In this document: positions 1,152 through 26,568 of the stretch, piece by piece
Layout of the letters: each line of letters opens with the position of its first letter
How positions within the stretch are numbered: position 1 is the first letter of the stretch
DNA from: Tegillarca granosa
Taxonomy: Eukaryota
Assembly (NCBI GenBank): GCA_029721355.1
Contig: CM056607.1
Location: 8,403,309 to 8,467,308, forward strand
DNA length: 64,000 nt
Reading direction: 5' to 3'
Position numbers and translations under genes: made by a program
Notes under the pieces: generated by a model
Database searches by the model: none
Seen by the model: only the letters and a program-made list of their open reading frames with translations
Told to the model about the DNA's origin: nothing

Positions 1152-1241
1152 AAATGGAAATTTCCAATTCATTTCAAGATAAGGTCATTTACAATATATG
1201 TTAACATTTATAATATGATCTATGAAATTGTAAAAACTAAC

Positions 1242-1398
1242 TTGTACTCTGTGCCTCCAGCCTTCTTGAAACATTCTATCATCTGTGGAATTTCATGTTC
1301 TACAACGGCAGGCAGCTGTCCATCACCTACACCATCACGATACACAATAATCCTTTCTGGTAGTATACCATTAACCTCATGGTATTTCTCTAAAGCAC
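1242..1398 (-). CDS. piwil1: piwi PIWI-domain exon 15 ([52 protein letters not shown]+aa). It contains the RDG catalytic-Asp motif.
   Basis: Acceptor is ttctaattgtag|GTGCTT and donor is TACAA|GTTAGT. It matches PIWIL1 [53 protein letters not shown]. Confidence 0.85.
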
Positions 1399-4300
1399 CT
1401 ACAATTAGAAACTTACTATTGAATTCCAAAATCAATATGATACGCATAAAATAAACAATCAGTATGATGCATAAAAGGGACCATGCCATGTCCAATTGAA
1501 AATCTTTTGGTAAATCTCAGTAATCTCAGGAATAATGCTGTGTTGTACCAAACTCTTAACATTTATACTGAGGTGTACAGTTCTTGGATGGTAGAAGAAA
1601 CTAGTGCGTCAAGAAAACTACCAAATTTCAAAAGCAAACTGACAATCTTAAATTATGATTAGCCAGAGTGAGATTAGAACCTAGGTGACGAGAGGCAGTG
1701 TAATCTGTAAGCACACTCTAAAAACCACCCAGCCTTTGAGGCCCCTCAGATATTGGGATCAATTATGTAAATACAACTTGCTTCAAATTACAATTCACTA
1801 CAATGATGTTCTGTACCTTCTTAACCATACATTGTGTTAATGACAATTTAAACTAGAATGTATACTTGCGAGCAAGTATATGTCTGCGTATCAGCTCTCT
1901 AAAGTGGTGCTCCAAACAGCAGAGGAAATTCCAAGAAAGAAAGAACTCTCTGGAATTCCATGGTTTTAACCGGATTTCTCTGAAGTTCTTCCGAATTCTG
2001 AAAAACGGTAAAGCGACCTGCCAATGGTCAATCCCTACCAATTGACAAAATTTCAACCTGATCGGATAAGAAATATAGGAGATGTCTCTGAAAAAATCTG
2101 TCAGAAACGAGGAACAATAATTATAATAATAAAGATTATGAGTAACAACAAGATGTCTGCTGATACGTAGACATAATTATTTGCTGTAACTAACCAGAAA
2201 CACATAAAATTATTTTAAATGGTGACATTTGTTTTGCCATATAGTAAAATTTAATGATTCAAATAAGCACCTTTTAACCTGTACATTATAGAGGCTTCTG
2301 TAGGACCAAGGTATTAAACTAGTTTTCAAGGACTTACCTCGGAGTTTGATTGTCATGTTGTCTACTAGTTCTCCTCCACTCATGTGGAATGCAGTACTAG
2401 AATAATACCTAGTTAAACTTTTGTTCATGCTAGCTACTATACCTCCAACGGAGCGGCCTTTCTTAGCCGAATCGTGATAAGTATCAATTCCTACCACCAT
2501 CAAATTTTTAAGCTGTTAAAAACAAAGGCAATTTCTTTCAATATAAAATGCAATTTCTTTTTCTTTTTGTATTAATACATAAAATACTTATTGATTGATA
2601 GTTCAAAAGAAAGATTCACTTTGGTAATCCACCAAATATATAAATCATCATTTCATCCTAACATACATTAATATTTGTCAGTAAATGTTAGTAAGCTAAA
2701 AGTGTTAGTTAAAATGACATACATGCAAGATAATCTAATTCCACAAAAACTGTAAAATCCCTATTCTAAGAAAACTTTTATTCCTGTGAAAACTGGACTA
2801 CTGAGTCCTGATTAATTACTTCATTTCTAAAGGTAGAATCCTTTGTAAACCTGGTTCTGAAAATTTTGAAAACCAGACAAATTTTGTCATCTGGATTACA
2901 TAAAACCAATATAAATTTACTTTTGTAAAGTTCACAAATAGAACAGTGTGAACAGGAAATAGTAACCACCTCCAAACCAATGCAACAAGTCAATAAAATT
3001 AGGTATTTTATATTTTAAAATTCTGATTTAAAGGATTAAACTCCATTAAATTAAAATAATTTTGCTTTAACAGTGCAGGCTGTCGGCCCTTCTAATTTAA
3101 AAGGGGTTATTATGTCAACTAAATGTTTGAAAACATTTTTGGTTGTGTCCCCACCCACTACATAACTGGGCTGACTAATGGTGTGTTTTTGCTTGTACAA
3201 GCAAGCTATGATAATATTTTAACTTTTTGACAAAAACATTTCTAATTTCTGAAAAAAATTACGGAAATGCCTTATATCACTATACAGTTAGTAGCTACAC
3301 ACAGAGTAACAGATTAAAGCTGAAAAAATTGTGTTATAAGAAAATTAAAGCAAAATAAACTAAATATACATGAAGACACTTTTCAAAAGCTAAATACATG
3401 TATATTGTTGCATATTAGTATGCATAATGAATTGAAAATTGCTTAAAATATCAATGCAAGATTTTATAAGCTGGAATACAATGTTTTTAGTAAAGCAAAA
3501 GAAAATTAAACCAAGCAAAGCAGACTGAACTGAAATAAAAAGCAGTTAATATCAACACAACAAACATGCCATAGCTGCAGACACAGAAAACACTGAAAAT
3601 GACAACATGAGTGCAACAACTGAGAACTGAAAAAACAATTACAAACACTGAAACAACAAACAACAAAATCTAATAAAATTCTTAACAAGCTATAAAATAT
3701 ATAATTGAAGCATGCATATAAATGAATGAATGAATGAATGAAATGATACAAATATGACAGTGAAAATTCTGCCCGAAAAATATGCAACTCAAGATGAAAT
3801 TTTGAGTTATCCAACCAAATGAACCAGCAGTAGAAACTGATACCTACCATCACAACTGAAACCTATGCATTTCTCAATTTTGACAACAAAAGTTAATACA
3901 ATAAGTTATGACAAGAAAACAATGTTATTTGTATAAAATATCCATAATGGTAGGTACTAGATAAAGTGTAGGGGATGGTGTCCAAGTTGAATCATTGTTC
4001 AAAAACACACAACAATAAAGCTGAAGCTAAAATTGAGAAGTAAACTAACTACTTAATCAGCAACACTATCACTTGGTTACCAAGCATGACAGAAAGGAAC
4101 AAGTATAAATGAATGAATTACAAATAATTTATCTTTTGTTTTACAAAGTTCAAAATTTATCAAGGGAACCCAAACCTTTCATGCAAACTTTAAGACCATC
4201 CAGTAATTCCTGCATATTATGTTGGAAGGTACATCTTGAATAGTAACGTGTCAAAGCTGTATTCATACTGGCAATGACGCCACCAACAGAACGACCTTTC

Positions 4301-7300
4301 TTCGAGGAATCATGATAGGAATCAATACCAACAACCATGATATTCTTTAGCTGTGATGATAATAAAAATGGAAGATAAAAGTACATGAAAAAAAATAAAG
4401 GTATGAATAGGGAGAATGAAATTCTATACAAGAAGAAATAAATTTTCACAATTTAGAATCAATGACTTGATGATTGTGGCATTACATCTGTACCATGAAA
4501 ATGCACAAAGATAACATAATTGAAAACACACAAATTTAATAATACATGCTAATAAAAATCAAGAAATGTTTTGGTTAAACATTTAAAAATAAAAGAAATA
4601 TCCACACTTCTATTAATCTGTGAATAAGACCACTGCACACATATTTTTGCACTTAAATGAACTATATATATATTTTTTAATTTATAAGCACTTAAATTAA
4701 TAGTAACAATTATACATAGCAGTTTAAAGTAAATACATAAAAAGAAAGTTACACTTTGTTTTATTTTTACAGACAAAATTTTTTATAAATTTTATATAGA
4801 CTTGTTGAAGATTGTTCACCTAGTAAAGAAGAGCTGTTGTAATATCAATCAACTATAACAAGTAAAATCAATATATCAGCATTTGGTCAATTTGTTGAAA
4901 ATTTCTTGCATTGTAAGAGTGAAATGTAACATGATTAAGACTGATTGCTTTAACAAGTAGCCTAGTGGGTTCTTTAACACTTTAACTGGCACTGCAGACA
5001 TCTCAACAAGGATCCGTTTTACCACATTTGGATCTATCTGACCTGGTGTTTTCAGAGTTAAAAAAATAAGCTTGAATAACGCAATATTTTTTATAAACCA
5101 TGAAAATGTGTTGATAGGAAATTTGTTTTATTTGTTAAGTGACAATTTTTCCTTCTATATTTCAAACTTTATCCATATTTGTTCACAAATATATCTTCAA
5201 CAGCTATTTGAAATGTATCTAGTTTTAATTATTATTAATATTTATAGTAAATGTAGCCATTTAAGAGTTTGACAGATATGCAATTTTTTTAACTCGCTGA
5301 AAACCAAGGATTTTCTTCACCAAATTTGGTTCTATTTTGCCTAGTGATTTCAGAGGAAAAGGCCTCAGCTGACTATAGCTTATTTTACTGAACTTAAATG
5401 AACCCAATACCAAATTTATACTCTATTTGAATTTAACTTTTTCCTCTGTGGATAAGATTTTTATTAAGACTGACAAACAATTCTCAGTTTTAATCAAAGT
5501 ATTTACAAAATGTCATCATAGATATTTGTTTTATTTCTAGACTAGAACTCGGCGTATACAGGCTTGTTATGTTTGCATCACTATGTAGTCCCATTGTATA
5601 GACTGCAACAAAATTATTATTCAAACACAACACACCAGTGGATTATTCATATCAATAACTGTAAATATAAGCACAATTCTACAGTATTCTAAGGGCTTGG
5701 TTGTTCAAAATTCTTAGCTTTTCCACTTTTTTGATAAAATTAATATTTCATTAAACTTCTTACTTAATTTTACATTTCAGATAGAAAATGTCTTTCCCCC
5801 ATCTTCTTCTATAACTTTGTTGAAACACAAATTTTCATTAACCAACTGTTTATCTAAGCCAAGACAATTTGAATAACTTGCCCCAGGTGTAACAATCCAA
5901 TGTAATACACACTTCACATAAGGCATTAAGTGATCACTTATATAAATATATACTAACCGGAATCTCGAGTGCCCAAACTTCACCACCCATTTTACAGTTC
6001 AGTTGTATACAGATCTTTGTTGCTACAGACATTAACATCTGTTTCTTTGCTAGTGTTCTTCCAACAATCACTTGACTTGGAACTGAAAGGGAAAGAAACA
6101 AAATTTTCTTTATATGATTTGAACATTAATTTACACCCAACTTTGACAATATTTTAAGACCTTGATGCCATAAAGAACACAAAAGGGCATTTAAAATTCA
6201 TATTTCAGTCAAATACTAGACATATGTAAAATTAAAATATTGAACAGCTACTTTACTATATGTTAAAGTAAAATATTGAACAGCTACTTTACTATATGTT
6301 AAAGTAAAATTTTGAACAGCTACTTTACTATATATTAAAGTAAAATATTGAACAGCTACTTTACTACAAATTAAAGTAAAATATTGAACAGCTAATTTAC
6401 TACAAATTAAAGTAAAATATTGAACAGCTACTTTACTACAAATTAAAGTAAAATATTGAACAGCTACTTTACTATATATTAGAGTAAAATATTGAACAGC
6501 TACTTTACTATATAATAAAGTTAAATATTGAACAGCTACTTTACTATATATTAGAGTAAAATATTAAACAGCTACTTTACTATATAATAAAGTTAAATAT
6601 TGAACAGCTACTTTACTATATATTAGAGTAAAATATTTAACAGCTACTTTACTATATATTAGAGTAAAATATTAAACAGCTACTTTACTATATATTAGAG
6701 TAAAATATTGAACAGCTACTTTACTATATATTAGAGTAAAATATTAAACAGCTACTTTACTATATATTAGAGTAAAATATTGAACAGCTACTTTACTATA
6801 TATTAAAGTAAAATATTAAACAGCTACTTTACTATATATTAGAGTAAAATATTGAACAGCTACTTTACTACAAATTAAAGTAAAATATTGAACAGCTACT
6901 TTACTATATAATAAAGTTAAATATTGAACAGCTACTTTACTATATATTAGAGTAAAATATTAAACAGCTTCTTTACTATATATTAGAGTAAAATATTGAA
7001 CAGCTACTTTACTATATATTAGAGTAAAATATTGAACAGCTACTTTACTATATACTAGAGTAAAATATTAAACAGCTACTTTACTATATACTAGAGTAAA
7101 ATATTGAAAAGCTACTTTACTATATACTAGAGTAAAATATTGAACAGCTACTTTACTATATACTAGAGTAAAATATTGAACAGCTACTTTACTATATACT
7201 AGAGTAAAATATTAAACAGCTACTTTACTATATACTAGAGTAAAATATTAAACAGCTACTTTACTATATACTAGAGTAAAATATTGAAAAGCTACTTTAC

Positions 7301-10300
7301 TATATACTAGAGTAAAATATTGAACAGCTACTTTACTATATACTAGAGTAAAATATTGAACAGCTACTTTACTATATATTAGAGTAAAATATTGAACAGC
7401 TACTTTACTATATACTAGAGTAAAATATTGAACAGCTACTTTACTATATATTAGAGTAAAATATTGAACAGCTACTTTACTATATATTAGAGTAAAATAT
7501 TGAACAGCTACTTTACTATATACTAGAGTAAAATATTGAACAGCTACTTTACTATACATTAGAGTAAAATATTGAACAGCTACTTTACTATACATTAGAG
7601 TAAAATATTGAACAGCTACTTTACTATATATTAGAGTAAAATATTTAACAGCTACTTTACTATATACCAGAGTAAAATATTGAACAGCTACTTTACTATA
7701 TACTAGAGTAAAATATTGAACAGCTACTTTACTATATACTAGAGTAAAATATTGAACAGCTACTTTACTATATATTAGAGTAAAATATTGAACAGCTACT
7801 TTACTATATAATAAAGTTAAATATTGAACAGCTACTTTACTCAATATGTACAATTTGTAATAATAATGTAACTTATAATTTTCCTTAAAACCAAAGTTTT
7901 TTTCCCACATTTCAGTCTTCAGCCAACAATCTTTGCTACCAGATAAAATTATAATACACCAACAACTTTTAAGCCACTTTTAATTTTCATTCTTGAAGCT
8001 AGATTTCTTCTTTACTGAAACCAACTTGGAAAGTAGTCACTATCTGCCAAGTTACCAATTTGCGACACAAGTATTTAATATTTAACTAAAACTCTTTGTG
8101 TCATCCTGCACCCCATGCATGAAAAAATAGGTTATATTTTGTTTTTTTGGAAAGTAGAGAGTGGGTCAATCTAGAATGAAAATTAGTCCTACCTGGATGG
8201 TCAACACAACAGAATTTTTTTATTGCATCATAGCGATCTTTCCTATTACTTGGCAAGATACACACTACCATCTGTGTATTTGGTTCTATATTCTGCCGTA
8301 AAGCTGCCAAATACATATCGTTACTGTCTCTTTCTATCTGTATTCTACAAAAGAACATGAAACTTTTAAAACCAGTTTCACTGTAAATCTTAAATTTGCC
8401 ATTTATCATGTTAATTTTTTTTTTCATTTGGGCCCTATGGCCATGATTTGGGGAAATTACAACTTATCAAATAGATACCACAAAAATATCTTATGCATAG
8501 CTCTTCTACATTTGTCAAAAATGATTTTCCTTAATTAGGGCCCAATAGTCAAAATTAAATTTAATATTACTTGTCCCAAGGCTGTTACACCTGATATATC
8601 ATCAAAGATCGAACTTTTATATTAAATGTCAGATATCGTATGAATTTTAAGTTTATTGAGCATTTCCCTATTTGAGCTCCAATGCACATGTAAATAAAAT
8701 ACATTATTATCAAAGTTAAAATGACATATTTTTACAACTTTTAAACCAGATTCAACATCAACATAGTCAATAAGCCAAAAATGTGCTAATGTTAAAAAAG
8801 ACTTGTAAAGCAAGAACCTCATTATCATATCTTGATTTAATCATTCACGTATATTCATTTAATCTCTATCATTGTATTTCTTCATAACTTACGGAGCTGG
8901 TCCGTTTATTCTCATGCCCATTGGAGGTCCAACACGTTTTAATGTTTGTGAAAAATCTTCTGCCATAGAACAGTTTCTGTTTGTGAAAATAAGTACCCAT
9001 CTGTCTAAACTAACTGGTGTTACAAGTTCTTTTCCTCTCATTTCTCTGGACCAGTCAGCTTCATCCTTGTTGCCCAACTAAAAGAGAAGAATGCTTAGTT
9101 TAGAACCTTTGGTTAAAGTGTTGTCTCTGGTTAACAGCATCAAACAACTGAAATTGTACATCAAAGATTGGTTCATCAGTGACCTTGCCCCTTTAGAATT
9201 TTTAATGAACCTTGATGACCAACAAGTCTATATGTAAATTGCACATTTACAGATAATTTGTCTGTAATGCATATACAAATACTAAATACAATCTAAAATA
9301 ATGAAACATGTAAACCGATTTATCTTTATCCTTTTACGAATTTATGTCATAATGGTGCTGTTGTGTCTTTTAACACAAAACTCACTTTTTAAGGACTGAA
9401 CTGGCAAAATGATAATGCTACAGCTTGGCAACTCCATATAATGTAACTGTTAATTCATTAATACAGCATTTATATCTACAAACTCTCTTTGATATAATTG
9501 GAATATCTAGCAACAAAATATTGTCCTACCTCACAATTTTTCTGGTAGATCTTTTCTTTTGGCAGTACCCTGGCATTCAGTGTTAACAAGGCATCAGAGA
9601 ATCTCAATCTCCAACCAGCCATTTCTTGTCTTACTTGTTGATTTCTGAAATAAATGAGAGGTGTGTAACATTTAACACAAGAAAGTTAGACTACATCAAA
9701 TAATTTATAGATTTTTTAAAATAAAAGTTTCTTCGGGTGTATCATTTAAAACAGAGTTTAAATTGTCAGATGATTTCAGGATATCATTTTAGGATTTCAT
9801 GTATCTGATTAGTAATTATTTTCACATGCTATATGTTTGGCAAATCTATTGAAAAAATTTTGCATTACCCTGAAAAAAAAATCACCAGAACCTGTCCTAG
9901 TAGATAGTGTAGATTTACAATCCTCATGTTGCAGAAATTCCCAACAATTTAGACATAATTTAGTCACCATTTTTCCTCCTGAGTGAAAAGGGTAACACCT
10001 GCCTCTAAAAACAATATTTAATCATCAAGTCCAGTAAATAATCTAAACCCTAAATTTACTGATAATGTTGTATGTGATTTACTATGCAATCAAGAAGATT
10101 TAGATATTATTCATTGCCTAAACCCTATACATAAAACCTACGATATACATGTATGTATATGCAGTCTTGATCATAACATGAGCTTTCAGAAAAGTATGGT
10201 GTCTAGTCCATTTATTTAACTTATTAATGTTGAATGACCATGACGACATCAATGCCAGAGTATGACAAACTTTTCCGAGGACAACTTACGTATTGATCTG

Positions 10301-13300
10301 TTTAATGAATTCTGTCAGTGTTGTTGATCTTCCTTCTGGAGCAACTCTTGTGTGTGTGGCAACATCTTTCATCACATTGAAATCTGCTCTTGCTTCATCT
10401 GAAAGGCCTGAAGAAGGGATTAATGTATACTAATTACTGAATCAAACTTACCTTATTAATGCCAAAATCAAAGCAAAAATGTATAAAGAATTCAAGTTGC
10501 ATGGTTCCCTTTCCATCTTCTGTTCAATTTTAATTCAGGGCTATTCAATTAAAACATATAAGGCACCCGGGGACGGCAATTTAATAAAAATATATGCCAG
10601 GCTGGTCAGAATGGAAAAACAAATCTATCGTATGTTGTGTTGAACATAAAAAACATCTATGGGTGGTTGATCTAACATAATCTCTCCAAAAACATTAAAT
10701 ATAAGTCTATGGGTTCGCCGGTAATTTTATCGTTAAAATTTTGGTAATTTCTAGTGTTCCATATCGTAGTAAAACAGTCATTTCCGAATGGACGAAATCT
10801 GTGTCAATTTGCCCTGGACACACTTTCGCTGGCCCCGAGTATGTTCAACCTACATCCGTTCAGAAAATAACTGATTGTTAAGGACAATAGTTTGAAGTCT
10901 TCTCTGCATTTTAAAATAAGATACGTCTTGAAAAAAATCAACTTATTGATAACGGAATAAAACCATATTAAAAGTAGGGCGAATGAATCCAGGACGAAAC
11001 GTGAATCAGGCAAAGTATATTTTAGGACGAATAGACCCGATAATCGAAAGTACGAGTAACTGCCCTTGTTTTCAGTTTTGTTCTGCATCGTGACTGACAC
11101 CAATAACGACTAATGGTATTTTGTGCAAAAACATTCGGCAGATGAAGTTTCAAGTTTATATATCCATTTATGCCATATGAGGATGTAAGAGTTTTGGGAT
11201 AAATAAAATCTTGTGATTAAAAAAAAAAATGAATAAATAAATTCTGTGGGGGGCTGTAAATTGCAGAAAATTGCATATATGGGTGGTCATAAGAATTTGT
11301 AAATCTCTTCTATGGGTGGTTACCCAAAATCAAAAGTGCCTTCCCCGGGTACCTCATATGTTTTAATAGAACAGCCCTCAGTTTAAGTGACATAAAATCC
11401 CTGAAATTAAGACTAATTTTCTTTCAAAGAATATTTATTAATCTTAGTTGTTCAACATCACAGAGACCTATAAAGCTGGCCATCATAGGCACACGCAAGC
11501 TTACATATGAACCTTTCCAGTTCCTCCTGTCATTATATCAAAATTTCAACATATCAAACTTTGCATTTTAAACCTTACCAGTAAGAAGGCATAATTCTGG
11601 TATAAGATAAATAGGATCTGCAGATTGTCCCGGTTTCAGATCTTTCTTCTTTGGTCTACTGACCAATAATGGCTGTTCAGGATCCTTTATTTGTATACCA
11701 TAAGCCTGAAACAAGACAACAAACATGAACAGCAATTCTAACCCCAATTAGACATCATTTTGTTGTATAGTGTGTATGACTAGACAACATTCTGTTATAT
11801 AGTGTGTATGACTAGATTGTGTGATGACCTAATATGGTTTATACACTCAGGCCTTTTACAGGCCCAGATATGAAATTTATTGACCCTATATAAACCCAAA
11901 AAGTCACCATTTACAGAAATCCCTCAAAATTTTTTTCCATGTTACAAATTTCAATAAAATCGTTTAAAAAATTAACCAGTAATGACCATTTGAAGGTTTT
12001 TACTATTTATTGTTTACTGCAGCTATTTTGGATTTCAGATGGACTTTTAAGGATAAAATTTTGAATCATTACCACCCAAGGATCATCCATATCAAATTTT
12101 CTTGTAATTGGTCGTGTGTATATATAGAATAATCCATGGCAAAATCCATATCATATGCCATATCAGACCGAGGGCTTTAGCCCGAGGTCTGATATTGGTC
12201 GAGGTCTGATATGGCATATGATATAGATTTTGCCATGTTTTATTCTGTTTATCATTTACTTAAAATTTCAACATGTAGAACAGATGCTATATTACATACA
12301 GAATGTAAAAAATATTAACTTGCATAAATGTGATGAAAAGTGCATTCCTAAAAACAATTTTAACTCAAAGAAATTTTTTTAATACCAGAAAGCTCTATTA
12401 AAATGGTACGTCTGTAGTTAATTTATTAGATTTCTAGACATCGTGTAAAAACGTTGGACATCAAGAGATTTGTTAATCAAAATATGACAAACATACGTTG
12501 AGGCAGACCTTGTTTATGATTTTGGGCCCCTTTACAGCTTTATCTGTCATGAAAAAGGTTGCCAAATGGATGTCAAGTTCAGGGGCGCTGAGATCTTCGA
12601 TGTTTCTGGTCTCTTTCCTTGATTTTAACCATGTACTAAATTTGTTCACATCAGAGTTTGTCTTTCAAACAGTGTTAAGATTCCTAATTTTCTCCACAAT
12701 CTCATGTGTAGCTGTAGATTCATCTCTTTCTCGATTCCTCCTTTCAATCATATGGTCCAAATCCATAATTCGATAAGCCAATGAATACATTACTTTTAGA
12801 TAGACAGTTTGTTTACAAACAAAACCACTGCCTTCTGGATATTCCTCCTCAGCTGGGCGAACCTTTGTAAGAACAAACGATGCCATCCGAGGAGTTTCGA
12901 AAGCATAAATATACATATGGATAAGATCCGTTTGTTCCAAGTAGCCGGTCTGATATCGATATCAGACCGGTGATACAGCTTTTCCGACCAGACACGTGCG
13001 GTTGGTGATATGGATCACATGATTTTAGCTGTATCCAAGCATACAGAAATTACATATTCAGTACTAAGTATATGATAAATTATATTATTATTGCGAAAAA
13101 AAATATTGTACAGAAAAACCTGTTACACTTTTTTTTTTTGTTTGTTTCAAAATTAGCCCAAAACTGAAATTGCAATGGCCATTAATAAATGTAGGTTTTT
13201 CTATCAATAGTAACATGAGCCATTGTGGATTTCTGACAGAAATAAAGGATAATTTTTTTTATTTTTACAATTTTATCAATCAAGGACCTTCCATACCAAA

Positions 13301-16300
13301 TTTCATTTGAATTGGCTCATTAGTTTCAGAGAAGAGTAAAGTTTATAGATGCACACATGCATGCGTGCTATTCCATGCTGTAAGCTCACCCTGGCTAAGC
13401 CAGGTAAGCTTAAATCTCAAGTCAAACAGGAAGTCCTAACCTTGACCTCATTTTGATAGACATCTCAATACAACATCAAATCTGAAGACCTCACGTCATT
13501 ATCTTTGATAAATAAGAAAGTGATCCAAGAACCACAAATATTTCTCCTTTTCTCAACAGCTTACCTGTTGATAATAATCACCATAGGAAACATCTTGATC
13601 TCTCTTCCTGAATGTGTGTGTTGGATGTTTCTCCCAATCAATGTCATCAACACGGTATGTTTTGTTGTTATACCTGAAATATCAACAAAACATTAACACA
13701 ATATCTGTAAAGTTCTACAGTCAAGTAAGTAACAAAATTGTACAGAAATATGTTAAAATTGTTACTAAAACAAGGCATCACAAAAACCCTTGTAACAGAG
13801 TATTGTATAATACTGTTTTTTAAAGAATCAGCTATATTTAGCTGCTAATTTGTACATTGTGATAACATGCAAATGAAAAAGTTGACAAAAAATCAGTTAT
13901 ATATATGTTAAATGAAAAGGGATCTATATTGTCAACACCAAATTTCAACAAATAACAAGTATGCAATGTTCATTTTTTCTGTTTTCTTTATCTATAGTAA
14001 CATTCACCATTATAGATTTAGGATCGGGCTAAAACACTAACTCGTCAGAGATATTACCATAATAAACCCAAATATGAGGTTTCATGAAATTCTGTTGAGA
14101 AATAAACTTGTTAGATTGCTGTGCTATATTACCATAATAAATCAATATATACAGTTTCATGAAATTCCATTGAGAGTGGAGTGGAGTTATAGTGTTTTAC
14201 ACCCCAGTCCAGAATCTTTCACTTATTTAGAGGCAGTCAATTGATGGAGGAAACCAGAGTGCCCAGAGAAAACCACCGACCTTTGGCAAGCAAACTGACA
14301 AACTTTCTCACACTAGAGTCTGTCCTGAGTGGGATTCGAACCCAGGCGATGAGAGAAGCTGTGATACGTAAGCATGAGCTTTAGACCACTTGGTTACAAA
14401 GGCCCCAAATTCTTTGAAAAATAAACTTTTTAAAGCACTGACAAAGAAAGTGTAACATTATATTAATATTACATTTCTGATTTGTTGATAGTCTATACTG
14501 TCACCCCGAGAAATTTCTTTGTCAACAAAGGTGGTCTATGAGCATTTTTTTCAAAAATAATATACACAGTATATACAATATTTTCTCCATGGGAAAATGG
14601 TAATAGTTCCCAACTTATCCATGGTTTGAGATAAAAAGATTTTTTGAACAGCATTAAAAATGGGACGGAATGGCATTATTAGAACACTTTCTGAAAATGA
14701 GCAACTATATAACTTCCATCATCTCCGAGGCCTCGGTGGCCGAGTGTTCTAAAGTGTGCCTCTCACCACCTGGGTTCGAATCCCACTTGGGACAGATCCT
14801 AGTGTGAGAAAGTTTGTCATTTTGCTTGCCAAAGGTCAATGGTTTTCTCCAGGCACTCCAGTTTCCTCCACCATCCCAGAACTGACTGCCTCGAAATAAG
14901 TGAAAGATTCTTGACTGGGGCGTAAAACACTATTACTCCACTCCACTATCTCCATTACAGATTTTTTTTTTCAACAGTCTGTCAATTTTCAAAACTTTAC
15001 TATTTTGCTGTCAAACAAATCATTCCACTTTTGTGTCAATTCTGATAAAATATAACACTTTTAAAGCTCCAGAAGCAATATGGTTTAACAAGTCATGTTT
15101 AACTTGGCAGTAATTGAAGCCATGACTTTTTAATCCAAATAATTGTTTTTTTATGCCAGGAACAGGAATTAACAGATTTTGGAATCCATGAAGACAAGTC
15201 TGGATAAAATTACTATAGTTATCATACAAACATGTTGAACTCCAGATTTAAGGAATTATTAAGTTTTCTCAAATAGGTATTGCAGTTTATCAACTTAAGA
15301 TGACCAAGTAAGTTAAAAAATTAACTTTCACTCACAGGACCTTCAAAATCATTTGAGATACTAAGAGTTTACGATAACCATATTATTCAATCTTACATTT
15401 ATCATGGAATATTGGACACCTGTCTGGAATCTACATGTTGTTTAATTCAACCATCTACATGCAAAATATGAGCACTATACTAATTTTATTTCTACGTATT
15501 ACATAACAGAACTGCTGAATGTTACACATTTTTACTAACCTTGTCATCACTATTGAACCAACCAATTTCTTAAACATGTCACTATAAAAATTATCTGTAC
15601 TTCTACTGCTGTTGTAAGCTTCATACATGATTTCGAGAACTGTATCACTGCGCAAGATTTTGTGAGAAATATCTGCACACAACAAGGTTTCAGATTCATA
15701 CTTCATAATGGATGTTATAAACCCTGGCATTACTGTTAACCTGTAGAGAATAGAATGCTTATCACTTAACAAAACCATTAATATACATGTATCTAAATAT
15801 CAAAATTTACTCTTTTAAAAATAAATTGCTAAATATTTTCAATTACAATATGCTGATATCTATACATTAATGTCTTGAGGAATAAATATAACAAGAGTGC
15901 CATGAAGGCCCTTGACGCTCACCTGCAAATGATGTACACTCAGCTTGATTTTGGCAAACTGGAGCTTCTATTCTTAAAAGAGATTTTTTCCTATATTTCG
16001 AGCTAGTGACCTACTTATTGACACAAAATGACCTATATATTAACTTGAGCTAGCTTTTGTCAAGAGCATCATTCTGAGACAGTTTGATAAGATTGGTCCA
16101 AAATGGATCCCCTCATATGTGTTAACAAGGTTTTTATATAATTCGACTTAGTGACCTAATTATTGACCCAACATAGCCCATATACAAACTCGAGCTAGCT
16201 TTTGTCAAGAGCATCATTCTGACTAAGTTTGATGAAGATTGGACTAAAATTGGGGCCCCAGGAGTGTAAGCAAGGTTTTCTTACAATTTGACTTAGTGAC

Positions 16301-19300
16301 CTACTTATTGACCCCACATGACCCATATACGAACTTGAGCTAGCTTTTGTCAAGAGCATCATTCTGACTAAGTTTGATGAAGACTGGACTAAAATTGAGG
16401 CCTCAGGAGTGTTAACAAGGTTTTTTTACAATTTGACCTAGTGACCTACTTATTGACCCAACATGGCCCATATACAATCTTGAGCTAGCTTTTGTCAAGA
16501 GCATCATTCTGACTAAGTTTGATGAAGATTGGACTAAAATTAAGTCCTCAGGAGTGTTAACAAGGTTTCTCTACAATTTGACCTAGTGACCTAGATATTG
16601 ACCCAACATGGCCTATATACGAACTTGAGCTAGCTTTTGTCAAGAAGATCATTCTGACTAAGTTTGATGAAGATTGAACTAAAATTGGATCTTCAGGAGT
16701 GTTAACAAGGTTTTTCTACAATTTGACCTAGTGACCTAGATATTGACCTAACATGGCCCATATACGAACTTGAGCTAGCTTTTGTCAAGAGCATCATTCT
16801 GACTAAGTTTGATGAAGATTGGACTAAATTTGAGTCCTCAGGAGTGTTAACAAGGTTTTTCTACAATTTGACCTAGTGACCTACTTATTGACCCAACATG
16901 GCCCAAATACGAACTTGAACTAGTTTTTGTCAAGAGCATCATTCTGACTAAGTTTGATGAAGATTGGACTAAAATTGGGGCCTCAGGAGTGTTAACAAGG
17001 TTTTTCTACAATTTGACCTAGTGACCTACTTATTGACCCAACATGGCCCATATACGAACTTGAGCTAGTTTTTGTCAAGAGCATCATTCTGACTAAGTTT
17101 GATGAAGATTGGACTAAAATTGGGGCCTCAGGAGTGTTAACAAGGTTTTTCTACAATTTGACCTAGTGACCTAGATATTGACCCAACATGGCCAATATAC
17201 GAACTTGAGCTAGCTTTTGTCAAGATGATCATTCTAAGTTTGATGAAGATTCGTCTGAAATCAGGTCCTCAGGAGTGTTAACAAGGTTTTTCTACAATTT
17301 GACCTAGTGACCTAGATATTGACCCAACATGGCCCATATACGAACTTGAGCTAGCTTTTGTCAAGAGGATCATTCTGAGAAAGTTTGATTAAGATTGCAC
17401 TTAAATTTTGGCCTCAGGAGTGTTAACAATCAAAAGTTGACGCACGACGCACACCGGACAATGACCCACCACAATAGCTCACTTGAGCACTTTGTGCTCA
17501 GGTGAGCTAAAAATAAAAGCCTGTCTCAGTAAAGCATCTGCTAGAGAGAGAAATGTTCCAAGTTCCAATTCCTTGCTTGGTCATATGACTTTAAAATTTG
17601 ATAACTGCTTCCATGCTAGGTGCTCATCTTTATGACAGCATATAGACTGGATCAGCCAGTGCCAAGATCATGGGATTGGAGGAAGTTTTTGCCTTTGGCA
17701 TTCTGAATAGGTGATCTTGAAAAAAATAACCCCAAGTGTGAGCTAGAAGAAGGCAGACCATCATTCACACTTGTACATTTTAACACATGCATAAACTTGT
17801 TCACTGATTCTTAACGATTAAACTTTTCAATAGCCGAAAAATTACTGATGTAATGTTAAAACAACATTACAACCAACAAAATTAAACTTACTTGTGTTGT
17901 GGAATATTTTGTGCTAGTTTTGGGTTAAAATAATTGCGTCCAATCTGCTGCATTTCAATCATGGCTAATACTCTATAAATAAACAAATAAATTATTTTCA
18001 TGAATAAATTATTTTACATTGTCATAAGAGAGAATCAACAAGAAATGATCTATTCTTACAAGTATACAGAAGCTGTCCAGGTAAGCATGGATTAAGCTTC
18101 CAAAAGGTTTGAAATTGCATTTGAGACTGAATGGCAAATGTTTGTTTGTTACAAAAGCTTTCTATTTTCTTGTATTATCACAATATAAATGGTCAAATGG
18201 TTGATAATTTTCACTGCCATTCACAGAAAATACAATTGCCGCAATGGTTAAATACGTATTTCTAACGTAAAATTGCAATTTACAAGTAACATTTTCAGTA
18301 TCTCAGATGACACATGAAAACAAATTCTTATATATTGTTAAAATGAATGAAATACTATCTTATGAACTGAAAGTGGTACCTTCTAAAAATGATGTTATAG
18401 ACCTGAATACACTGTGGTGAGGTAGGTGGAAGCTCATTGGTCAGAGTGATGGTAATCCTTATCTGTTCATTGTCTCTTCTAGCTGTGGAATACACTTCGG
18501 TTACCTATAATATTTGATTCAAAAGTGTACTGAATAAAGATCATTATTTAAAAGGGGATAATTTTTCATTGTTTTCATGGTTAATGTTAGTCTTGCCAAG
18601 GACTTTTTTTTTTTTTTAAATTTTTAACTTTTTACCGCACAAAATTTAATTTCAACATTACATTATATCTGTATATGATAAAACATTTCCATTTATACAT
18701 AAACCATTGAAGTCTCTCAAGAGATAATTAGCTTTTGGTGACAGATTTCACTTCATGACTTTTAACCTTTAACCTACACACCTTAATTTGGTATGCAACA
18801 AATTGTGTAATGTTTGTATATTGTGCCAAGTTTGATGAAAGTTCTTCCAACAGATATTAAGAGCAGACCCAATACTAAGACAGACTAGACAGCAAGTTTC
18901 CTATAAACTCCCCTTAACATTGTTGGGGGATTGGTCTAATTACTGCATCTACTCCTGAATAACAACACATGTACTATCACTTCAAAACCAAAGGATGATC
19001 TCTTAAATTCAAACCATCCATCATAGGCAGACTTATCAAACTTGGGCATATACACTTTTTACATTCAAATACATGTACATCAAAGCAATACTTTATTCAA
19101 ACTGTTAACAACTTAAATAGAATGTATTCATGCTTACATCTTGTTGAAGTCTCCGAGGCAAAAACAACACCATGCCATCAAAAGCACGAGTTGTACCCAA
19201 TAGCTCTTTATGGTCTGCCAGCAGTCCAACTCTCAACTTTCTTGAAATCACTGGTGGATTAAATTCAACATGATACTGGTAAAGATGCCAGTCTGGTGCA

Positions 19301-19379
19301 CACTCTAATTTGAAATAATTTGTTTGTACAGCAATTGTTTTACCAGAAGTTCCTGAAAAACAGAAATAATACATTTTTC

Positions 19380-19428
<49 letters not shown>

Positions 19429-21251
19429 CATTTGTGCTAAGAAATCCAAATAAGGTGACCAAACCTTATTGCTTAAAAATACATTGGTTGAAAATATTTA
19501 TACACAAAATCAACCCTTATATTATAAAAACTTGCAAATGTGAGTGTTTTACTCGCAATGTACAGTCCTGTATGTAAATTTCAAGAATGTTTAGTACCAA
19601 TGTTAACTTTTAAACCTAATTGTCCAATTTGCCAAGCACCACCAGTGATTTTGCTATGGTTTTTAAAAACTACCTTCCACCTTTCAGATTGGGAAAATTT
19701 GGACCCTTTTTATGTCGCATATTACCCTCAGAATTTTGAAATTCATTGCAGATTTTATATTGTGACAATATCTAACATTTTTTGTCTGTCATAACAGTTT
19801 TGGACAACTGGATTTAACTTAAACTATTTGATTGTGTGTCACTGTTGCCTTTGGGGAATTTTAGTTGTCAAATTGGGAAATTTTAGTCTTATTTCTCAAG
19901 GGGAAACTACCTTTATTCAGTAGTAATTTTAGGCAAACAAAACCACTGACCAGAAAGTATTTATTTGTTCCCTTATAATATTACATGTTGATACAGAACT
20001 TTGTGTTAAAATGCTGTTATTTATTTTCTTTTTTAATTTTGTTTTGCTTTGATTTTGTTGTTTCTTTTGGTTTTTTGTTTTTTTTAGTCTCCTAAATCCA
20101 TAGTAAAACTTTCTTTTCCAGGTTGTTACATTTCAAGTAATTGTTTAAGTGGAAATAATTGCTATTAATTTAACGGGTTGGGCAGATACATTTTTTACAT
20201 GCAAAAAGTTATTTTCAGTTTGCATTGTCCTTGACCAGCAAAACTTACTGACTTCAAAAAATGTTACATCTCTTACCCTTTTTGTCCATAATGTGCGCTG
20301 GTCTAGTAGTTAATTCTGTGTACCGGAAATCTGACCGTTTCCTGCCAACATCTCTAGCATCTCCAGTTCCTATCTTCAACTTTTCAATTTCTTCTACAGG
20401 AACTTTAGCATCTCCACTTGCCATTCCTGGCCTTTCTTTAGTTGCCCCTCCTCTATAGCTAGCTCTTCCACTTGCAGCTGGAGGACCAGCAGCTGGTGCT
20501 GGGGCAGGCGAAGCTGCTGATGGTGCCTGTGGGGCCTGATAAAATAATAATTTTTCTTTGGTTTTTTTTTTTAGCAAATCAAAGGGTCTTTTTAAAGAAC
20601 CATTAACATTACCAATAAGTAGGCTTCTCCCCAATTTGTCTGCAAAAATCTGCATAACAAACACTTCAAAATAATATTAGAAATCTCAACTTGGGATTGA
20701 TTTACTTACAATACTGTGCAAGAAATTGTAACCTGGAAGGAAACACTTTTAAACTTTTTCTCTAAAGTTGCATCTCTTATCAAGATTTTTTTTCACAAAT
20801 AATGTCAGTTTTTTGTTTTTTTTTGTTTGTTTGTTTTTTGTTTTTTTTTTGAAAGCGATGAAAAGCTGAGTGCCAAGTGATAATCAGTAACACTGATCTT
20901 CAAATGAACCAAAATACTTTTCTACAGTCATTCCAAATATTGTACTTAGTTTTAACATGGCATTGAGACTAGAACCAATAGCTTACATGTTAACTTTAAA
21001 ATACAAGGACAAACGTTTTCCATTAAAAAATAATCATGAAAAGCTTTTTTATCATCTCCATGTTCAAGTGAAATTAGACATCATAATTAAATTTTTTAAT
21101 ATACACATGGAAAAAAATAAAATACAGACCAAGATAAAACCATATAAATTGATGAATACCACACCTGTTGACTTTCACCAGGTCGTCTTGCCTGGTCATC
21201 CTGCTGACCCCTTGCACGTCCCCTGGCTCGCCCTCTGGCTCTGCCCGACAT
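1242..21251 (-). CDS. piwil1: Piwi-subfamily Argonaute gene (PIWIL1/Piwi1-like). At least 15 coding exons in the window. The 3'-terminal exon(s) encoding the PIWI C-terminus lie beyond the window start.
   Basis: The spliced conceptual product aligns collinearly with remembered human PIWIL1. The N-terminus has RG/RA repeats ([15 protein letters not shown]). Further matches include [56 protein letters not shown] and [11 protein letters not shown]. The PAZ region contains [11 protein letters not shown]...[23 protein letters not shown], and the MID region contains [20 protein letters not shown]. The PIWI region contains [10 protein letters not shown] and [14 protein letters not shown]. Every exon is bounded by AG acceptors and GT donors with mutually consistent phases. 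Confidence 0.85.
1660..1747 (-). mobile_element. Fragment of the tRNA-derived SINE head (same family as 14175-14406).
   Basis: The reverse complement ggggcctcaaaggctgggtggtttttagagtgtgcttacagattacactgcctctcgtcacctaggttctaatc parallels the SINE head ggggcctttgtaaccaagtggtctaaagc...cctgggttcgaatc. Confidence 0.45.
2338..2512 (-). CDS. piwil1: piwi PIWI-domain exon 14b, a tandem paralogue of exon 14a ([58 protein letters not shown]+g). Candidate alternative or mutually exclusive exon.
   Basis: Acceptor is ttttaacag|CTTAAA and the donor is a consensus CGAG|GTAAGT. Length (175 nt) and phases are identical to exon 14a. The C-terminal half of the encoded segment is more diverged from PIWIL1. Confidence 0.65.
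4176..4350 (-). CDS. piwil1: piwi PIWI-domain exon 14a ([58 protein letters not shown]+g). It carries the first catalytic Asp.
   Basis: Acceptor is tcatcacag|CTAAAG and the donor is a weak AAAG|GTTTGG. It matches PIWIL1 LKLVMIVGIDCYHD...[20 protein letters not shown] closely. It is 175 nt long, entering in phase 0 and leaving in phase 1, which fits the next exon at 1398. Confidence 0.8.
5958..6082 (-). CDS. piwil1: piwi coding exon 13 ([42 protein letters not shown]).
   Basis: Acceptor is cctttcag|TTCCAAG and donor is ATTCCG|GTTAGT. It matches PIWIL1 [42 protein letters not shown]. Confidence 0.8.
6225..7842. repeat. 36-bp tandem satellite, about 45 copies (unit approximately agtaaaatattgaacagctactttactatatattag), in piwi intron 12.
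   Basis: The period between successive gaacagctac motifs is a constant 36 bp (6242, 6278, 6314 and onwards). The six-frame ORF 7248-7910 is an artefact of this array. Confidence 0.95.
8193..8344 (-). CDS. piwil1: piwi coding exon 12, MID domain ([51 protein letters not shown]+g).
   Basis: Acceptor is ttcttttgtag|AATACA and donor is CATCCAG|GTAGGA. It matches PIWIL1 [28 protein letters not shown]. Confidence 0.85.
8893..9077 (-). CDS. piwil1: piwi coding exon 11 ([61 protein letters not shown]+cc).
   Basis: Acceptor is ctcttttag|TTGGGC and donor is GCTCC|GTAAGT. It matches PIWIL1 [53 protein letters not shown]. Confidence 0.8.
9530..9644 (-). CDS. piwil1: piwi coding exon 10 ([39 protein letters not shown]).
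   Basis: Acceptor is ttatttcag|AAATCA and donor is TGTGAG|GTAGGA. It matches PIWIL1 [40 protein letters not shown]. Confidence 0.75.
10290..10407 (-). CDS. piwil1: piwi coding exon 9 ([39 protein letters not shown]+ac).
   Basis: Acceptor is cttcttcag|GCCTTT and donor is AATAC|GTAAGT. It matches PIWIL1 [41 protein letters not shown]. Confidence 0.8.
10561..11354. mobile_element. Non-autonomous TIR element (MITE-like) in a piwi intron.
   Basis: Terminal inverted repeats are aggcacccggggacggca at 10561 and tgccttccccgggtacct at 11337 (about 15 of 17 bases match). Internal CTATGGGTGG-type direct repeats occur at 10657, 10709, 11280 and 11313. Confidence 0.45.
11579..11705 (-). CDS. piwil1: piwi coding exon 8 ([42 protein letters not shown]+g).
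   Basis: Acceptor is ttcag|GCTTAT and donor is ACTG|GTAAGG. It matches PIWIL1 [23 protein letters not shown]...AMLIPELCYLTGL. Confidence 0.8.
12135..13030. mobile_element. Foldback/TIR element with GGTCTGATAT subterminal repeats in a piwi intron.
   Basis: There is a 35-bp perfect hairpin: catggcaaaatccatatcatatgccatatcagacc (12135-12169) against ggtctgatatggcatatgatatagattttgccatg (12204-12237). A perfect palindrome ccggtctgatatcgatatcagaccgg lies at 12945-12970. A diverged right-arm copy ggttggtgatatggatcacatgattttagctg lies at 13000-13031. Confidence 0.4.
13565..13673 (-). CDS. piwil1: piwi coding exon 7, PAZ ([37 protein letters not shown]).
   Basis: Acceptor is atttcag|GTATAAC and donor is CAACAG|GTAAGC. 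It matches PIWIL1 [39 protein letters not shown]. Confidence 0.85.
14175..14406 (-). mobile_element. tRNA-derived SINE copy A (head at 14406, body with a CORE/MIR-like central domain).
   Basis: The reverse-complement head ggggcctttgtaaccaagtggtctaaagctcatgcttacg...cgcctgggttcgaatcccactcaggacag carries D-arm-like and B-box (GGTTCGAATCC) motifs. The body tgtcagtttgcttgccaaaggtcgg...ggtttcctcc...aaataagtgaaagattct is about 90% identical to copy B. Confidence 0.7.
14727..14953 (+). mobile_element. tRNA-derived SINE copy B, inverted relative to copy A.
   Basis: The head gaggcctcggtggccgagtgttctaaagtgtgcctctcaccacctgggttcgaatcccacttgggacag is followed by the same body as copy A. The tail is ...tattactccactccactatctcc. 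Confidence 0.7.
15540..15740 (-). CDS. piwil1: piwi coding exon 6, N-terminal part of PAZ ([45 protein letters not shown]...[11 protein letters not shown]+ag).
   Basis: Acceptor is ctctacag|GTTAAC and donor is ACAAG|GTTAGT. It matches PIWIL1 [38 protein letters not shown]...ELIGLVVLT. Confidence 0.85.
15990..17428. repeat. 145-bp tandem satellite, about 10 copies, in piwi intron 5.
   Basis: The period between tattgaccca motifs is 145 bp (16161, 16306, 16451, 16596 and onwards). The unit is approximately ttgacccaacatggcccatatacgaacttgagctagcttttgtcaagagcatcattctgactaagtttgatgaagattggactaaaattggggcctcaggagtgttaacaaggtttttctacaatttgacctagtgacctact. Confidence 0.95.
17429..17520 (+). other. Conserved hairpin-containing tail following the 145-bp satellite (agctcacttgagc-actttgt-gctcaggtgagct then A-rich). 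It may be the terminus of a non-autonomous Helitron/Helentron-like carrier.
   Basis: A 12/13 inverted repeat spans 17476-17508. The same tail motif recurs in the same orientation at 860-895. Confidence 0.3.
17892..17972 (-). CDS. piwil1: piwi coding exon 5 ([27 protein letters not shown]+aa).
   Basis: Acceptor is ttatag|AGTATT and donor is CACAA|GTAAGT. It matches PIWIL1 [27 protein letters not shown]. Confidence 0.8.
18380..18504 (-). CDS. piwil1: piwi coding exon 4 ([41 protein letters not shown]+ag).
   Basis: Acceptor is ttatag|GTAACC and donor is AGAAG|GTACCA. It matches PIWIL1 [42 protein letters not shown]. Confidence 0.85.
19138..19352 (-). CDS. piwil1: piwi coding exon 3 ([72 protein letters not shown]).
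   Basis: Acceptor is ttttcag|GAACTT and donor is CAAGAT|GTAAGC. There is a near-colinear match to PIWIL1 SSGIIVRLSTNHF...WALYQYHIDYNP...AFDGTILFLPKRLQQ. Confidence 0.85.
19385..19424. repeat. (GA)n microsatellite.
   Basis: Direct reading of the sequence. Confidence 0.95.
20277..20535 (-). CDS. piwil1: piwi coding exon 2 ([19 protein letters not shown]...[23 protein letters not shown]+g). Phase 0 in, phase 1 out.
   Basis: Acceptor is ttattttatcag|GCCCCA and donor is AAAAAGG|GTAAGA. It is in frame with exon 1. The ..RRDFHDLGVNTRQN.. region resembles PIWIL1. Confidence 0.7.
21165..21251 (-). CDS. piwil1: piwi coding exon 1 (start codon at 21251-21249). Encodes [29 protein letters not shown]. 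Donor is CAG|GTGTGG.
   Basis: The ATG is followed by an Arg-Gly/Arg-Ala repeat typical of Piwi N-termini. An AG acceptor (ttatcaacag) lies 22 nt upstream of the ATG, suggesting a separate 5'UTR exon. The donor is moderately weak, so the exon end is less certain. Confidence 0.65.
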
Positions 21252-24987: not shown

Positions 24988-26568
24988 GGTGCCACACAAC
25001 TTAAAGACCTGGCAGTTGATGATCATACCTCTTATGCACATAATCAGAGTATTCAGGAGTTTCAGGCAGCTATAAGTAAGGTATTAGAGGATAAGTTGTT
25101 GGCTAAGGTTGAGGCTAGTAAGGAGTTCAGTATAATGATAGATGAGTCAACTGATGTATCAGTTCATCAGAATTTGTTGGTATATATCAGGATAGTTGAG
25201 GAAATAGGTGCTAGGTGGGAACCCAGGTCATACTTTTTAGGTGTCAGGCAGTTAGCTAGTGCTACTGCAGATAGTATTACTAGGGAAGTGTTAGATGTTC
25301 TCACTAGTAATGGTTTAGATGTAGGTGATATGGTAGGGATATCCACTGATGGAGCAGCAGTGATGGTAGGGTCAAAGTCAGGTGTTGTGACTAGACTGAG
25401 AGATTCTTCCCCCAGTTTGCTTGCTACACATTGTATTGCCCACAGGTTAGCTTTAGGTTGTGGTTCTGGTGCTGATAAAGTTCCATATCTGGTAAAGTTT
25501 CAGGAAATTTTGAATTCTATTTACAAGTATTTTAGTTTTTCTCCAAAACATATGGCAGCTCTTGAGAGTATTCAGGAAGTTATTGAAGGTGTTGAAAAGA
25601 GTAGGTTCAAACAAGTGTTTACTACAAGGTGGCTTAGTTTTGAGGGTAGTGTCCATGCTGTAGTAAGGAATTATTCATCACTGATTTCTGTGTTTCTTGA
25701 GGAGAATTCAGCTAAGGCTTTAAGCTTGTACAAGCCAGTGTCTACATACAAGTTTTTGTTCTGTGCACACTTTCTGTCAGATGTTTTGAAACAGTTGTGT
25801 TTTCTGAGTAAGATGTATCAGAAGTCTGATTTAGATTTTTCACAGGTGAACCCACTGTTAAGTTCCACTATTGTAGTTTTGGAGAATCTTAGGGACTCTA
25901 AGTGCAGTAGTGTTTTGGCTGAATTTCTTAGTGTTGTTCCATCTGAGCCAATGTTAGACAGTGACGGTTTATACACTTTTCAGTTTAAAGGTCACACAAT
26001 TAGAGATAGTGCCCAACAGAGAAAGGAGACTGTGTCTTCATGCGAGGCTTTTGTAGATCATACAGTGTCAAATCTTAAGGAAAGGTTCAGTGATGGTAAG
26101 GATGCTAAGATCATGTCAGCTATGTGTGCAGTTTTGAACCCTAGTTTAGATGGCCAGTTGAGTAGTGATGATGTTAAGACAGTTGGTGACTATTTGAGTA
26201 GTTGTGGTATTAAGGATTCAGCATGTTTTGCTCAGGAGTTATCTAGTTTTAATGGTTATGTCAAAGTTCAAGTTAATAAGAATAGTGAAAGTGTAAATTC
26301 TGTGAAGGATGTGGCACAGTTGGGCTTGAAATTGCTAGATATTTTTCCTGTGGTAGGGATTATGTGCAAGAGGTTTCTGACACTGCCAGTTTCTACAGTG
26401 GATTGTGAAAGAGGATTTTCAAGACAGAATCTGATTAAAACCTGTCAGAGAAACAGATTGAAAGAAAAGACTTTAGATAATTTATTTAGAATTTCAATGG
26501 ATGGCCAAAGAGAAAATATTGACTTTGATAATGTGTTTAAAGTTTGGGCAGGAGTAAAACCAAGATGA
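24988..26568 (+). CDS. hAT transposase main 3' exon (DESTD / DUF4371-like region plus hAT C-terminal dimerisation domain). Stop codon at 26566-26568.
   Basis: Acceptor is cattccag|GGTGCC. The open frame continues from 24988 through the annotated ORF 25096-26568. Motifs include IMIDESTDVSVHQNLLVYIRIVEE, ATHCIAHRLALG and the C-terminal FLTLPVSTVDCERGFSRQNLIKTCQRNRLKEKTLDNLFRI (hATC). Confidence 0.8.
   Translation, partial: GATQLKDLAVDDHTSYAHNQSIQEFQAAISKVLEDKLLAKVEASKEFSIMIDESTDVSVHQNLLVYIRIVEEIGARWEPRSYFLGVRQLASATADSITREVLDVLTSNGLDVGDMVGISTDGAAVMVGSKSGVVTRLRDSSPSLLATHCIAHRLALGCGSGADKVPYLVKFQEILNSIYKYFSFSPKHMAALESIQEVIEGVEKSRFKQVFTTRWLSFEGSVHAVVRNYSSLISVFLEENSAKALSLYKPVSTYKFLFCAHFLSDVLKQLCFLSKMYQKSDLDFSQVNPLLSSTIVVLENLRDSKCSSVLAEFLSVVPSEPMLDSDGLYTFQFKGHTIRDSAQQRKETVSSCEAFVDHTVSNLKERFSDGKDAKIMSAMCAVLNPSLDGQLSSDDVKTVGDYLSSCGIKDSACFAQELSSFNGYVKVQVNKNSESVNSVKDVAQLGLKLLDIFPVVGIMCKRFLTLPVSTVDCERGFSRQNLIKTCQRNRLKEKTLDNLFRISMDGQRENIDFDNVFKVWAGVKPR

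Follow-up and report, generated by a model that had tools for sequence, protein, structure and literature searches.

The window examined here is a 64,000-nucleotide (nt) stretch of the genome of the bivalve Tegillarca granosa (GenBank assembly GCA_029721355.1, contig CM056607.1, positions 8,403,309 to 8,467,308 of the forward strand). Its first 20 kb carry part of a minus-strand gene that, judged by its predicted protein, is bivalve piwi-like protein 1 (PIWIL1). Within the PIWI-domain portion of this gene lie two adjacent, homologous exons, here called A and B, which are candidates for mutually exclusive splicing and are the subject of this analysis. All coordinates of the T. granosa locus are positions in the window.

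The PIWIL1 locus and its tandem exons

The placement of the PIWIL1 exons was guided by tblastn with a Haliotis PIWIL1 protein and a spliced mRNA of another species. Besides A, B and the two exons that flank them, 11 further exons were placed between about 20466 and 8194, with approximate coordinates (Table 1). The C-terminal exons, amounting to the C-terminal third of the protein, fall past coordinate 1 and therefore outside the window. The assembled protein of 718 residues has Piwi_N, ArgoN, PAZ and Piwi domains (Pfam). Its closest named relatives are the piwi-like protein 1 sequences of the oysters Saccostrea, Crassostrea and Ostrea (65-68% identity), followed by those of Mya, Mactra and Dreissena (62-66%), with scallops and gastropods further down. 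The best 120 matches listed are all PIWI proteins, and nearly all of those named at the source are called piwi-like protein 1 or Piwi. The best-matching solved structures are PIWIL1 and PIWIL2.

Table 1 Positions of the PIWIL1 gene features within the 64,000-nt window
Feature	Positions	Strand	Details
PIWIL1 gene, part inside the window	1-20466	minus	tblastn with Haliotis and other PIWIL1 proteins
Further PIWIL1 exons, approximate	20275-20466, 19132-19353, 18376-18501, 17891-17990, 15539-15745, 13565-13675	minus	tblastn
Further PIWIL1 exons, approximate, continued	11577-11708, 10292-10411, 9527-9658, 8892-9068, 8194-8343	minus	tblastn
Upstream constitutive PIWI-domain exon	5958-6082	minus	ends in phase 0 with a complete codon (...ALEIP); donor GTTAGT 5957-5952
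Exon A	4176-4350	minus	175 nt; acceptor cacAG 4352-4351; donor GTTTGG 4175-4170
A-B intron	2513-4175	minus	1663 nt; no U12-type splice signals
Conserved intronic block	3705-3770	minus	83% identity over 66 nt with a close relative (L001); surrounding intron 58-68%
Exon B	2338-2512	minus	175 nt; acceptor aacAG 2514-2513; donor GTAAGT 2337-2332
Downstream constitutive exon	1242-1398	minus	starts GT GCT; second catalytic Asp inside; donor GTTAGT from 1241

On the minus strand the order is upstream exon, A, B, downstream exon, and A and B together fill a single slot between their neighbors. Each consists of 58 codons plus one base, is free of stop codons and lies between an AG and a GT border. Both are entered in phase 0 and leave one extra base, and the downstream exon requires exactly one base from the exon that precedes it. 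Because the 175-nt length is not a multiple of three, a full-length protein can result only when a single copy is included. The splices upstream-A-downstream and upstream-B-downstream both keep an open frame. In contrast, a transcript with both copies reads ...KVCMKA and then meets a stop in the second codon of B, and one that skips both reads ...EIPVL and has its stop in codon 3 of the downstream exon. The A/B pair thus shows every property of length, phase and homology by which mutually exclusive exons are predicted.

As proteins, A and B align without a gap over their full length, with 35 of 58 residues identical (60%) and 47 of 58 similar (BLASTP E value 2e-27). As DNA they are about 65% identical; alignability ends a few bases past the splice sites, and the flanking introns cannot be aligned. 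No third copy of the exon was found in the window, where tblastn with PIWI proteins matched exactly A and B.

A first-pass annotation of this DNA had described two exons of exactly 175 nt in the same phase, with the phase-1 exit that the exon at 1398 requires, AG acceptors of similar context, and a weak GTTTGG donor on A against a consensus GTAAGT on B. It had also held that inclusion of both would break the frame. All of this is borne out by the sequence, with the additions that the stop is immediate and that skipping both copies is equally disruptive. The coordinates of the neighboring exons needed one-base adjustments: the upstream exon is 5958-6082, as the G at 6083 is already part of the acceptor AG, and the downstream exon is 1242-1398.

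The segment encoded by A or B aligns to the PIWI domain of the solved PIWIL1, PIWIL2, sponge Piwi and silkworm Siwi structures. The catalytic tetrad of Siwi is D670/E708/D740/H874, and in human Ago2 the residues His600 and Ser610 keep the glutamate finger, which sits on a flexible loop, in its active position (PMC7015924). By spacing, positions 10, 13, 21 and 48 of the T. granosa exon correspond to the catalytic Asp, the His, the Ser and the glutamate finger, Glu48. The second catalytic Asp lies in the downstream exon, and the spacing matches that of Siwi D670/E708/D740 and of the equivalents of Ago2 H600/S610; the His that completes the DEDH tetrad falls outside the window. Asp10, His13, Ser21 and Glu48 are retained in both A and B. 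Exon B also keeps the core residues N30, T34-S38, F42 and L49, and the Pfam Piwi model scores A at 139.5 bits and B at 134.9 bits.

The 23 residues, of 58, that differ between A and B are unevenly placed. Positions 1-38 are nearly alike, and the differences cluster in two stretches, the loop that leads into the glutamate finger (39-47) and the beginning of the next helix (49-58). On this alignment the swapped part is predicted to be the mobile half of the active site, with the context of the catalytic Asp unchanged. We infer that splicing would give two cleavage-competent forms of PIWIL1 with different catalytic-site dynamics or partner contacts. The expectation that isoform switching alters the slicer segment around the first catalytic Asp was thus only partly right: the exon does lie within the catalytic site, but the residues around that Asp stay the same and it is the glutamate-finger loop and the following helix that change.

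The exon pair across bivalves

Comparison with orthologous piwi loci, proposed as a check in the first-pass annotation, recovered the same pair in the same order in oysters, in Mactra and in three other bivalve genomes. The arrangement of upstream exon, A, B and downstream exon is found in an oyster contig (L010; upstream exon 2204-2329, A 2734-2908, B 4272-4446), in Mactra antiquata (L012; 13237-13362, 13802-13978, 15947-16123 and 18063-18221) and in three further genomes (L002/L003, L004 and L006). Exon A is also present in a close relative of T. granosa (L001), the sequence of which stops about 1.3 kb past it. In all, the comparison takes in six other bivalve genomes, to which L001 contributes exon A only. 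No B-type open reading frame closer than those of the other bivalves was found in the protein collection. The upstream T. granosa exon is 81-86% identical to its counterparts at the other bivalve loci.

Elsewhere the A-B intron measures 1363-3396 nt within single loci, and about 14 kb in the L002/L003 species. In the latter, a gene for a 584-amino-acid (aa) piggyBac-type transposase sits inside the A-B intron (L002 14472-16226, L003 225-1979), with both exons intact.

A single exon occupies the slot in the scallop Mizuhopecten and in the limpet Patella. The exon of Mizuhopecten yessoensis (L011 16109-16285) looks mixed, its first half being B-like (DTYHDS..GGVVCS) and its second half A-like (RCTFQH..GLKVCVK). 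It could represent the undivided ancestral state, a fusion of the two copies, or a loss followed by drift.

These comparisons also bear on a further explanation, under which the two exons would stem from a faulty assembly or a recent segmental duplication and have nothing to do with splicing. Nothing speaks for it beyond the presence of two similar segments 1.7 kb apart. In DNA, A and B share only about 65% identity, their synonymous differences are saturated, their flanking introns are unrelated, and independent assemblies of at least six other species show the same order of exons. We regard this explanation as effectively refuted.

The two exon types also appear as isoforms. RefSeq holds equal-length pairs of piwi-like protein 1 isoforms for Saccostrea echinata, Crassostrea gigas, Crassostrea angulata, Crassostrea virginica and Ostrea edulis. 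Residue-by-residue comparison of four of these pairs (all but that of C. angulata) gave 17-18 differences each, every one inside the 58-aa exon, and in each compared pair one isoform is A-type and the other B-type. For example, isoforms X1 and X2 of S. echinata are both 871 aa long and differ at 18 positions, all in the A/B exon. The C. gigas pair is XP_034338425 and XP_034338427, and C. angulata X1 and X2 are listed under the same sequences.

Transcript-derived sequences agree with single inclusion. Full-length, mRNA-derived oyster proteins from assembled sequencing runs (Logan) hold a single copy of the exon, and among the run-derived cluster members listed that span it, the copy is B in 10 of 10. 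The exact C. gigas B-type protein occurs on 82 contigs, versus 8 for the exact A-type, a rough sign that B is commoner than A in the sampled oyster material. Outside the oysters, a spliced, mactrid-like mRNA with a 3' untranslated region (L005) joins the upstream exon, a B-type exon and the downstream exon.

Deposited gene models at this locus are inconsistent. Three oyster models of 885-925 aa carry both copies in tandem after shifted splice sites: UniProt K1QVJ8 (P0413), A0A8W8KK17 (P0414) and S. echinata XP_061163363 (P0434). These appear to be prediction errors of the kind typical of mutually exclusive loci. In Mactra antiquata (GCA_047288015.1), an intact A exon (L012 13802-13978) is omitted from the deposited protein KAL4223114.1, which uses B. 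Both Mya arenaria models have the A-type exon only. In C. virginica, isoform X1 (P0295/P0427; 876 aa) is a third isoform with an extra KGAL just before the B-type exon, which suggests an additional alternative acceptor or a micro-exon at the same junction.

The two copies have evolved at different rates. Compared with exons of the same type in other bivalves, T. granosa exon A shows 84-93% identity (90-93% with those of oysters) and exon B 64-74% (66-71% with those of oysters). Nine species offered both exons for comparison, and in each of the 36 comparisons among them the divergence of B was about three times that of A. Exon A is moreover 76-81% identical to the PIWIL1 exon of an annelid, a starfish and a sea anemone, and it therefore resembles the ancestral exon. 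The earlier description of A as the more PIWIL1-like copy is correct. At four positions, every A exon of the nine species can be told from every B exon: position 11 (S in A, T in B), position 40 (C in A, T or V in B), position 46 (M in A, other residues in B) and position 54 (K or R in A; L, M, T or V in B).

Between distant species the proportion of synonymous differences (pS) is 0.72-1.0, which is saturated, and that of nonsynonymous differences (pN) ranges from 0.07 to 0.12 in A and from 0.06 to 0.24 in B. Between T. granosa and L001, exon A has eight synonymous and no nonsynonymous differences, with the neighboring intron 58-68% identical. By these counts, both copies are under purifying selection. 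In a neighbor-joining tree the bivalve A exons group together with 49% bootstrap, and no A exon pairs with the B exon of its own species. This clustering and the four distinguishing positions speak for a single ancient origin of the pair. A single B clade receives 3% bootstrap, as 58 residues and long B branches resolve little. The simplest reading of the sequences would be one tandem duplication before the divergence of oysters and heterodont clams, followed by loss or fusion in scallops.

Taken together, we consider it very probable that A and B are a mutually exclusive pair derived from an ancient tandem exon duplication and that both are used in T. granosa, the use of both being argued from the conservation of the pair in other bivalves. 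The alternative use proposed in the first-pass annotation thus gains support from orthologous exon pairs, RefSeq isoforms and single-copy mRNAs. Several observations weigh against this conclusion. The transcript evidence for A and B comes from bivalves other than T. granosa and the L001 species, and the RefSeq isoforms are computational models, though normally backed by RNA-seq. The scallop, with just one exon in the slot, indicates that the pair can be lost, and the roughly threefold faster evolution of B could partly reflect relaxed constraint. Six residues of T. granosa exon B occur in none of the other bivalve exons; they include Ser39, where all the others have Arg, and Gly47, which adjoins the glutamate finger. 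Finally, neither an inverted-repeat scan of 1241-6083 nor a duplex search with a conserved intronic block revealed a docking/selector structure in the RNA, and no further element that might regulate the choice was found.

Some of the same observations would suit a different explanation, in which B is a decaying pseudo-exon in T. granosa, a relic of the old duplication, and only A is spliced. The greater divergence of B, with lineage-unique residues that include R39S at an otherwise invariant site, its faster evolution in all lineages and the loss of one copy in the scallop all point that way. However, the frame of B is open, its length is exactly 175 nt, it has a good polypyrimidine tract with an AG, and its GTAAGT donor is perfect. 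None of its catalytic or core residues has been replaced, its Pfam score is similar to that of A, and its pN to other B exons is just 0.22-0.24 with synonymous sites saturated. Moreover, the B exon of Mactra has about as many unique residues (seven), yet the deposited gene model uses it; the L005 mRNA is B-type; and B is the commoner type in assembled oyster mRNAs. We consider a decaying exon B improbable.

Splice-site strength and the choice of exon

If A and B are mutually exclusive, each PIWIL1 mRNA would take one or the other, with double inclusion and double skipping breaking the frame. For FGFR2, the decay of aberrant forms has been shown experimentally, and by analogy with such cases nonsense-mediated decay would be expected to clear the unproductive PIWIL1 transcripts.

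The donors of the two exons differ in strength. Those of A, readable in six genomes, are GTTTGG, GTTTGC, GTTTGA, GTCTTG, GTTCAT and GTGCCC and agree with 4-5 of the 9 U1 consensus positions. The B donors are GTAAGT, GTCAGT, GTATGA, GTAGGG and GTATTA, with 5-8 of 9, and wherever both donors can be compared, that of A is the weaker. All acceptors are YAG with pyrimidine tracts. Because its donor is weak in every species examined, A probably needs activation. The choice between the exons would be set by splice-site strength together with trans-acting factors, with B as the default exon and A dependent on a splicing activator.

On another reading, the A donor is too weak for A to be used in T. granosa, and B is effectively constitutive. 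Of the 9 U1 consensus positions the A donor fits 5, with T at both +3 and +4, and B-type sequences dominate the assembled oyster transcripts. Nevertheless, we give an unused exon A little credence. Its differences from L001 are exclusively synonymous while the adjacent intron has drifted to 58-68% identity, and A is the most conserved version of the exon across bivalves. Its unusual GTTTG donor is also found in oysters, for which RefSeq has A-type isoforms, so that such a donor is very likely functional. Moreover, the exact A protein is found on eight oyster contigs.

As to how joint inclusion of A and B would be prevented, steric exclusion is ruled out by the A-B intron, which is far too long for it at 1663 nt. 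Incompatibility of U2 and U12 sites is ruled out as well, since all sites are ordinary GT-AG and no U12-type donor such as /RTATCCTT is present. The inverted repeats found in the 4.8-kb region scanned are AT-rich and mostly 71-89% complementary. One of them pairs 2503-2526, at the B acceptor, with 4135-4158, just past the A donor; it is 75% complementary and was judged to be due to chance.

The A-B intron also contains a conserved block (Table 1) with a core of about 35 nt that is nearly identical in L001. A search of the pre-mRNA for a pairing partner of this block found none, the best duplex, at -26.5 kcal/mol, equaling the mean of shuffled sequences (-26.5; standard deviation, 2.4). In the other species, the introns have diverged too far for covariation to be compared. 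Whether the block belongs to the splicing switch is uncertain.

The window also contains repeats and mobile elements. Two introns of the PIWIL1 gene carry large minisatellites, one at 6233-7841, just upstream of the exon at 5958-6082 (36-nt unit, about 45 copies), and one at 15995-17429 (145-nt unit, about 10 copies). A further tandem array, of a 75-nt unit in about 10 copies, is found at 42013-42775. About 12 kb upstream of the start of the piwi gene, an unbroken reading frame of 1567 aa on the plus strand (32572-37275) encodes the protease, reverse transcriptase, RNase H and integrase of a Ty3/gypsy-type retrotransposon and looks intact. The plus strand also carries a remnant of a hAT-family transposase (25096-26568) and a reverse-transcriptase fragment (43055-44347), and the minus strand a 726-aa DDE_Tnp_4 (Harbinger/PIF-like) transposase (59564-61744).

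Meaning of the exon pair and comparison with known systems

Whereas PIWI proteins usually diversify through gene duplication, in this case splicing would decide between two versions of a stretch of the active site, with the catalytic Asp, the His and Ser that stabilize it and the mobile glutamate finger, in an arrangement kept over deep bivalve divergence. We put forward, as a tentative proposal, that a switch older than the split between oysters and heterodonts lets one gene produce two slicer-competent PIWIL1 proteins, one with the ancestral and the other with a rapidly evolving glutamate-finger loop. The two forms may differ in cleavage kinetics, in cofactor contacts or in tissue use (germline versus soma). 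If the proposal is true, one gene does the work of two PIWI paralogues.

There are practical consequences as well. Mollusc piRNA studies in which Piwil1 is treated as a single protein may be lumping two functional entities together, as may quantitative PCR and antibody reagents blind to the difference between A and B. Several public gene models are wrong at this locus, in that older oyster models join both exons, that of Mactra omits A and those of Mya arenaria are A-type only. At the same time, the two exon versions provide a natural experiment in which to study how slicing depends on the glutamate-finger loop.

Two-exon mutually exclusive clusters are already known as a kind, and this particular pair is present in RefSeq for five oyster species. 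A search of the literature on exclusive splicing or exon duplication in piwi genes, and on piwi in oysters and other bivalves, found no paper that describes it, and an alternative slicer-site segment of such age seems not to have been described before in a PIWI protein. The splicing pattern itself is of a textbook kind. We see the finding as solid but only moderately surprising, its interest lying in where the swap falls within a PIWI protein and in how long it has been retained.

The closest known counterpart is the X1/X2 pair of oyster piwi-like protein 1 in RefSeq, which shares with T. granosa the gene, the slot, the A and B types, the order of A before B and the GTTTG donor on A. The two differ in sequence, with overall protein identity of about 65-68%, the exons themselves being 90-93% (A) and 66-71% (B) identical. 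The IIIb and IIIc exons of FGFR2 and other two-exon clusters (PMC6071210) are likewise adjacent and homologous, and only single inclusion is productive there as well. FGFR2 belongs to a different protein family, however, and at the T. granosa pair no competing RNA structures were detectable.

Among molluscs, PIWIL1 has also been diversified by duplication of the whole gene, which the main study of mollusc PIWI genes (PMC6128900) describes for Lymnaea, Radix and Bathymodiolus. In those animals entire genes are doubled, whereas in T. granosa a single active-site exon is doubled and splicing would select the copy. The same study treats C. gigas as lacking a Piwil1 duplication, and where it mentions isoforms, exons or alternative splicing, it is not about Piwil1 isoforms. 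It also reports homotypic Piwil1-Piwil1 ping-pong in oyster muscle that is not explained by expression levels (PMC6128900). PIWIL1-A and PIWIL1-B might be the two partners in this apparently homotypic ping-pong.

The last comparison, that of Drosophila Piwi with slicer-competent PIWI proteins (PMC7015924), concerns the same protein segment. Slicer competence depends there on a His three residues after the Asp, a Ser eleven residues after it and the glutamate finger. In Drosophila Piwi (DVDK), these residues are replaced and slicing is lost. In contrast, A and B both keep them, so neither T. granosa isoform looks catalytically dead.

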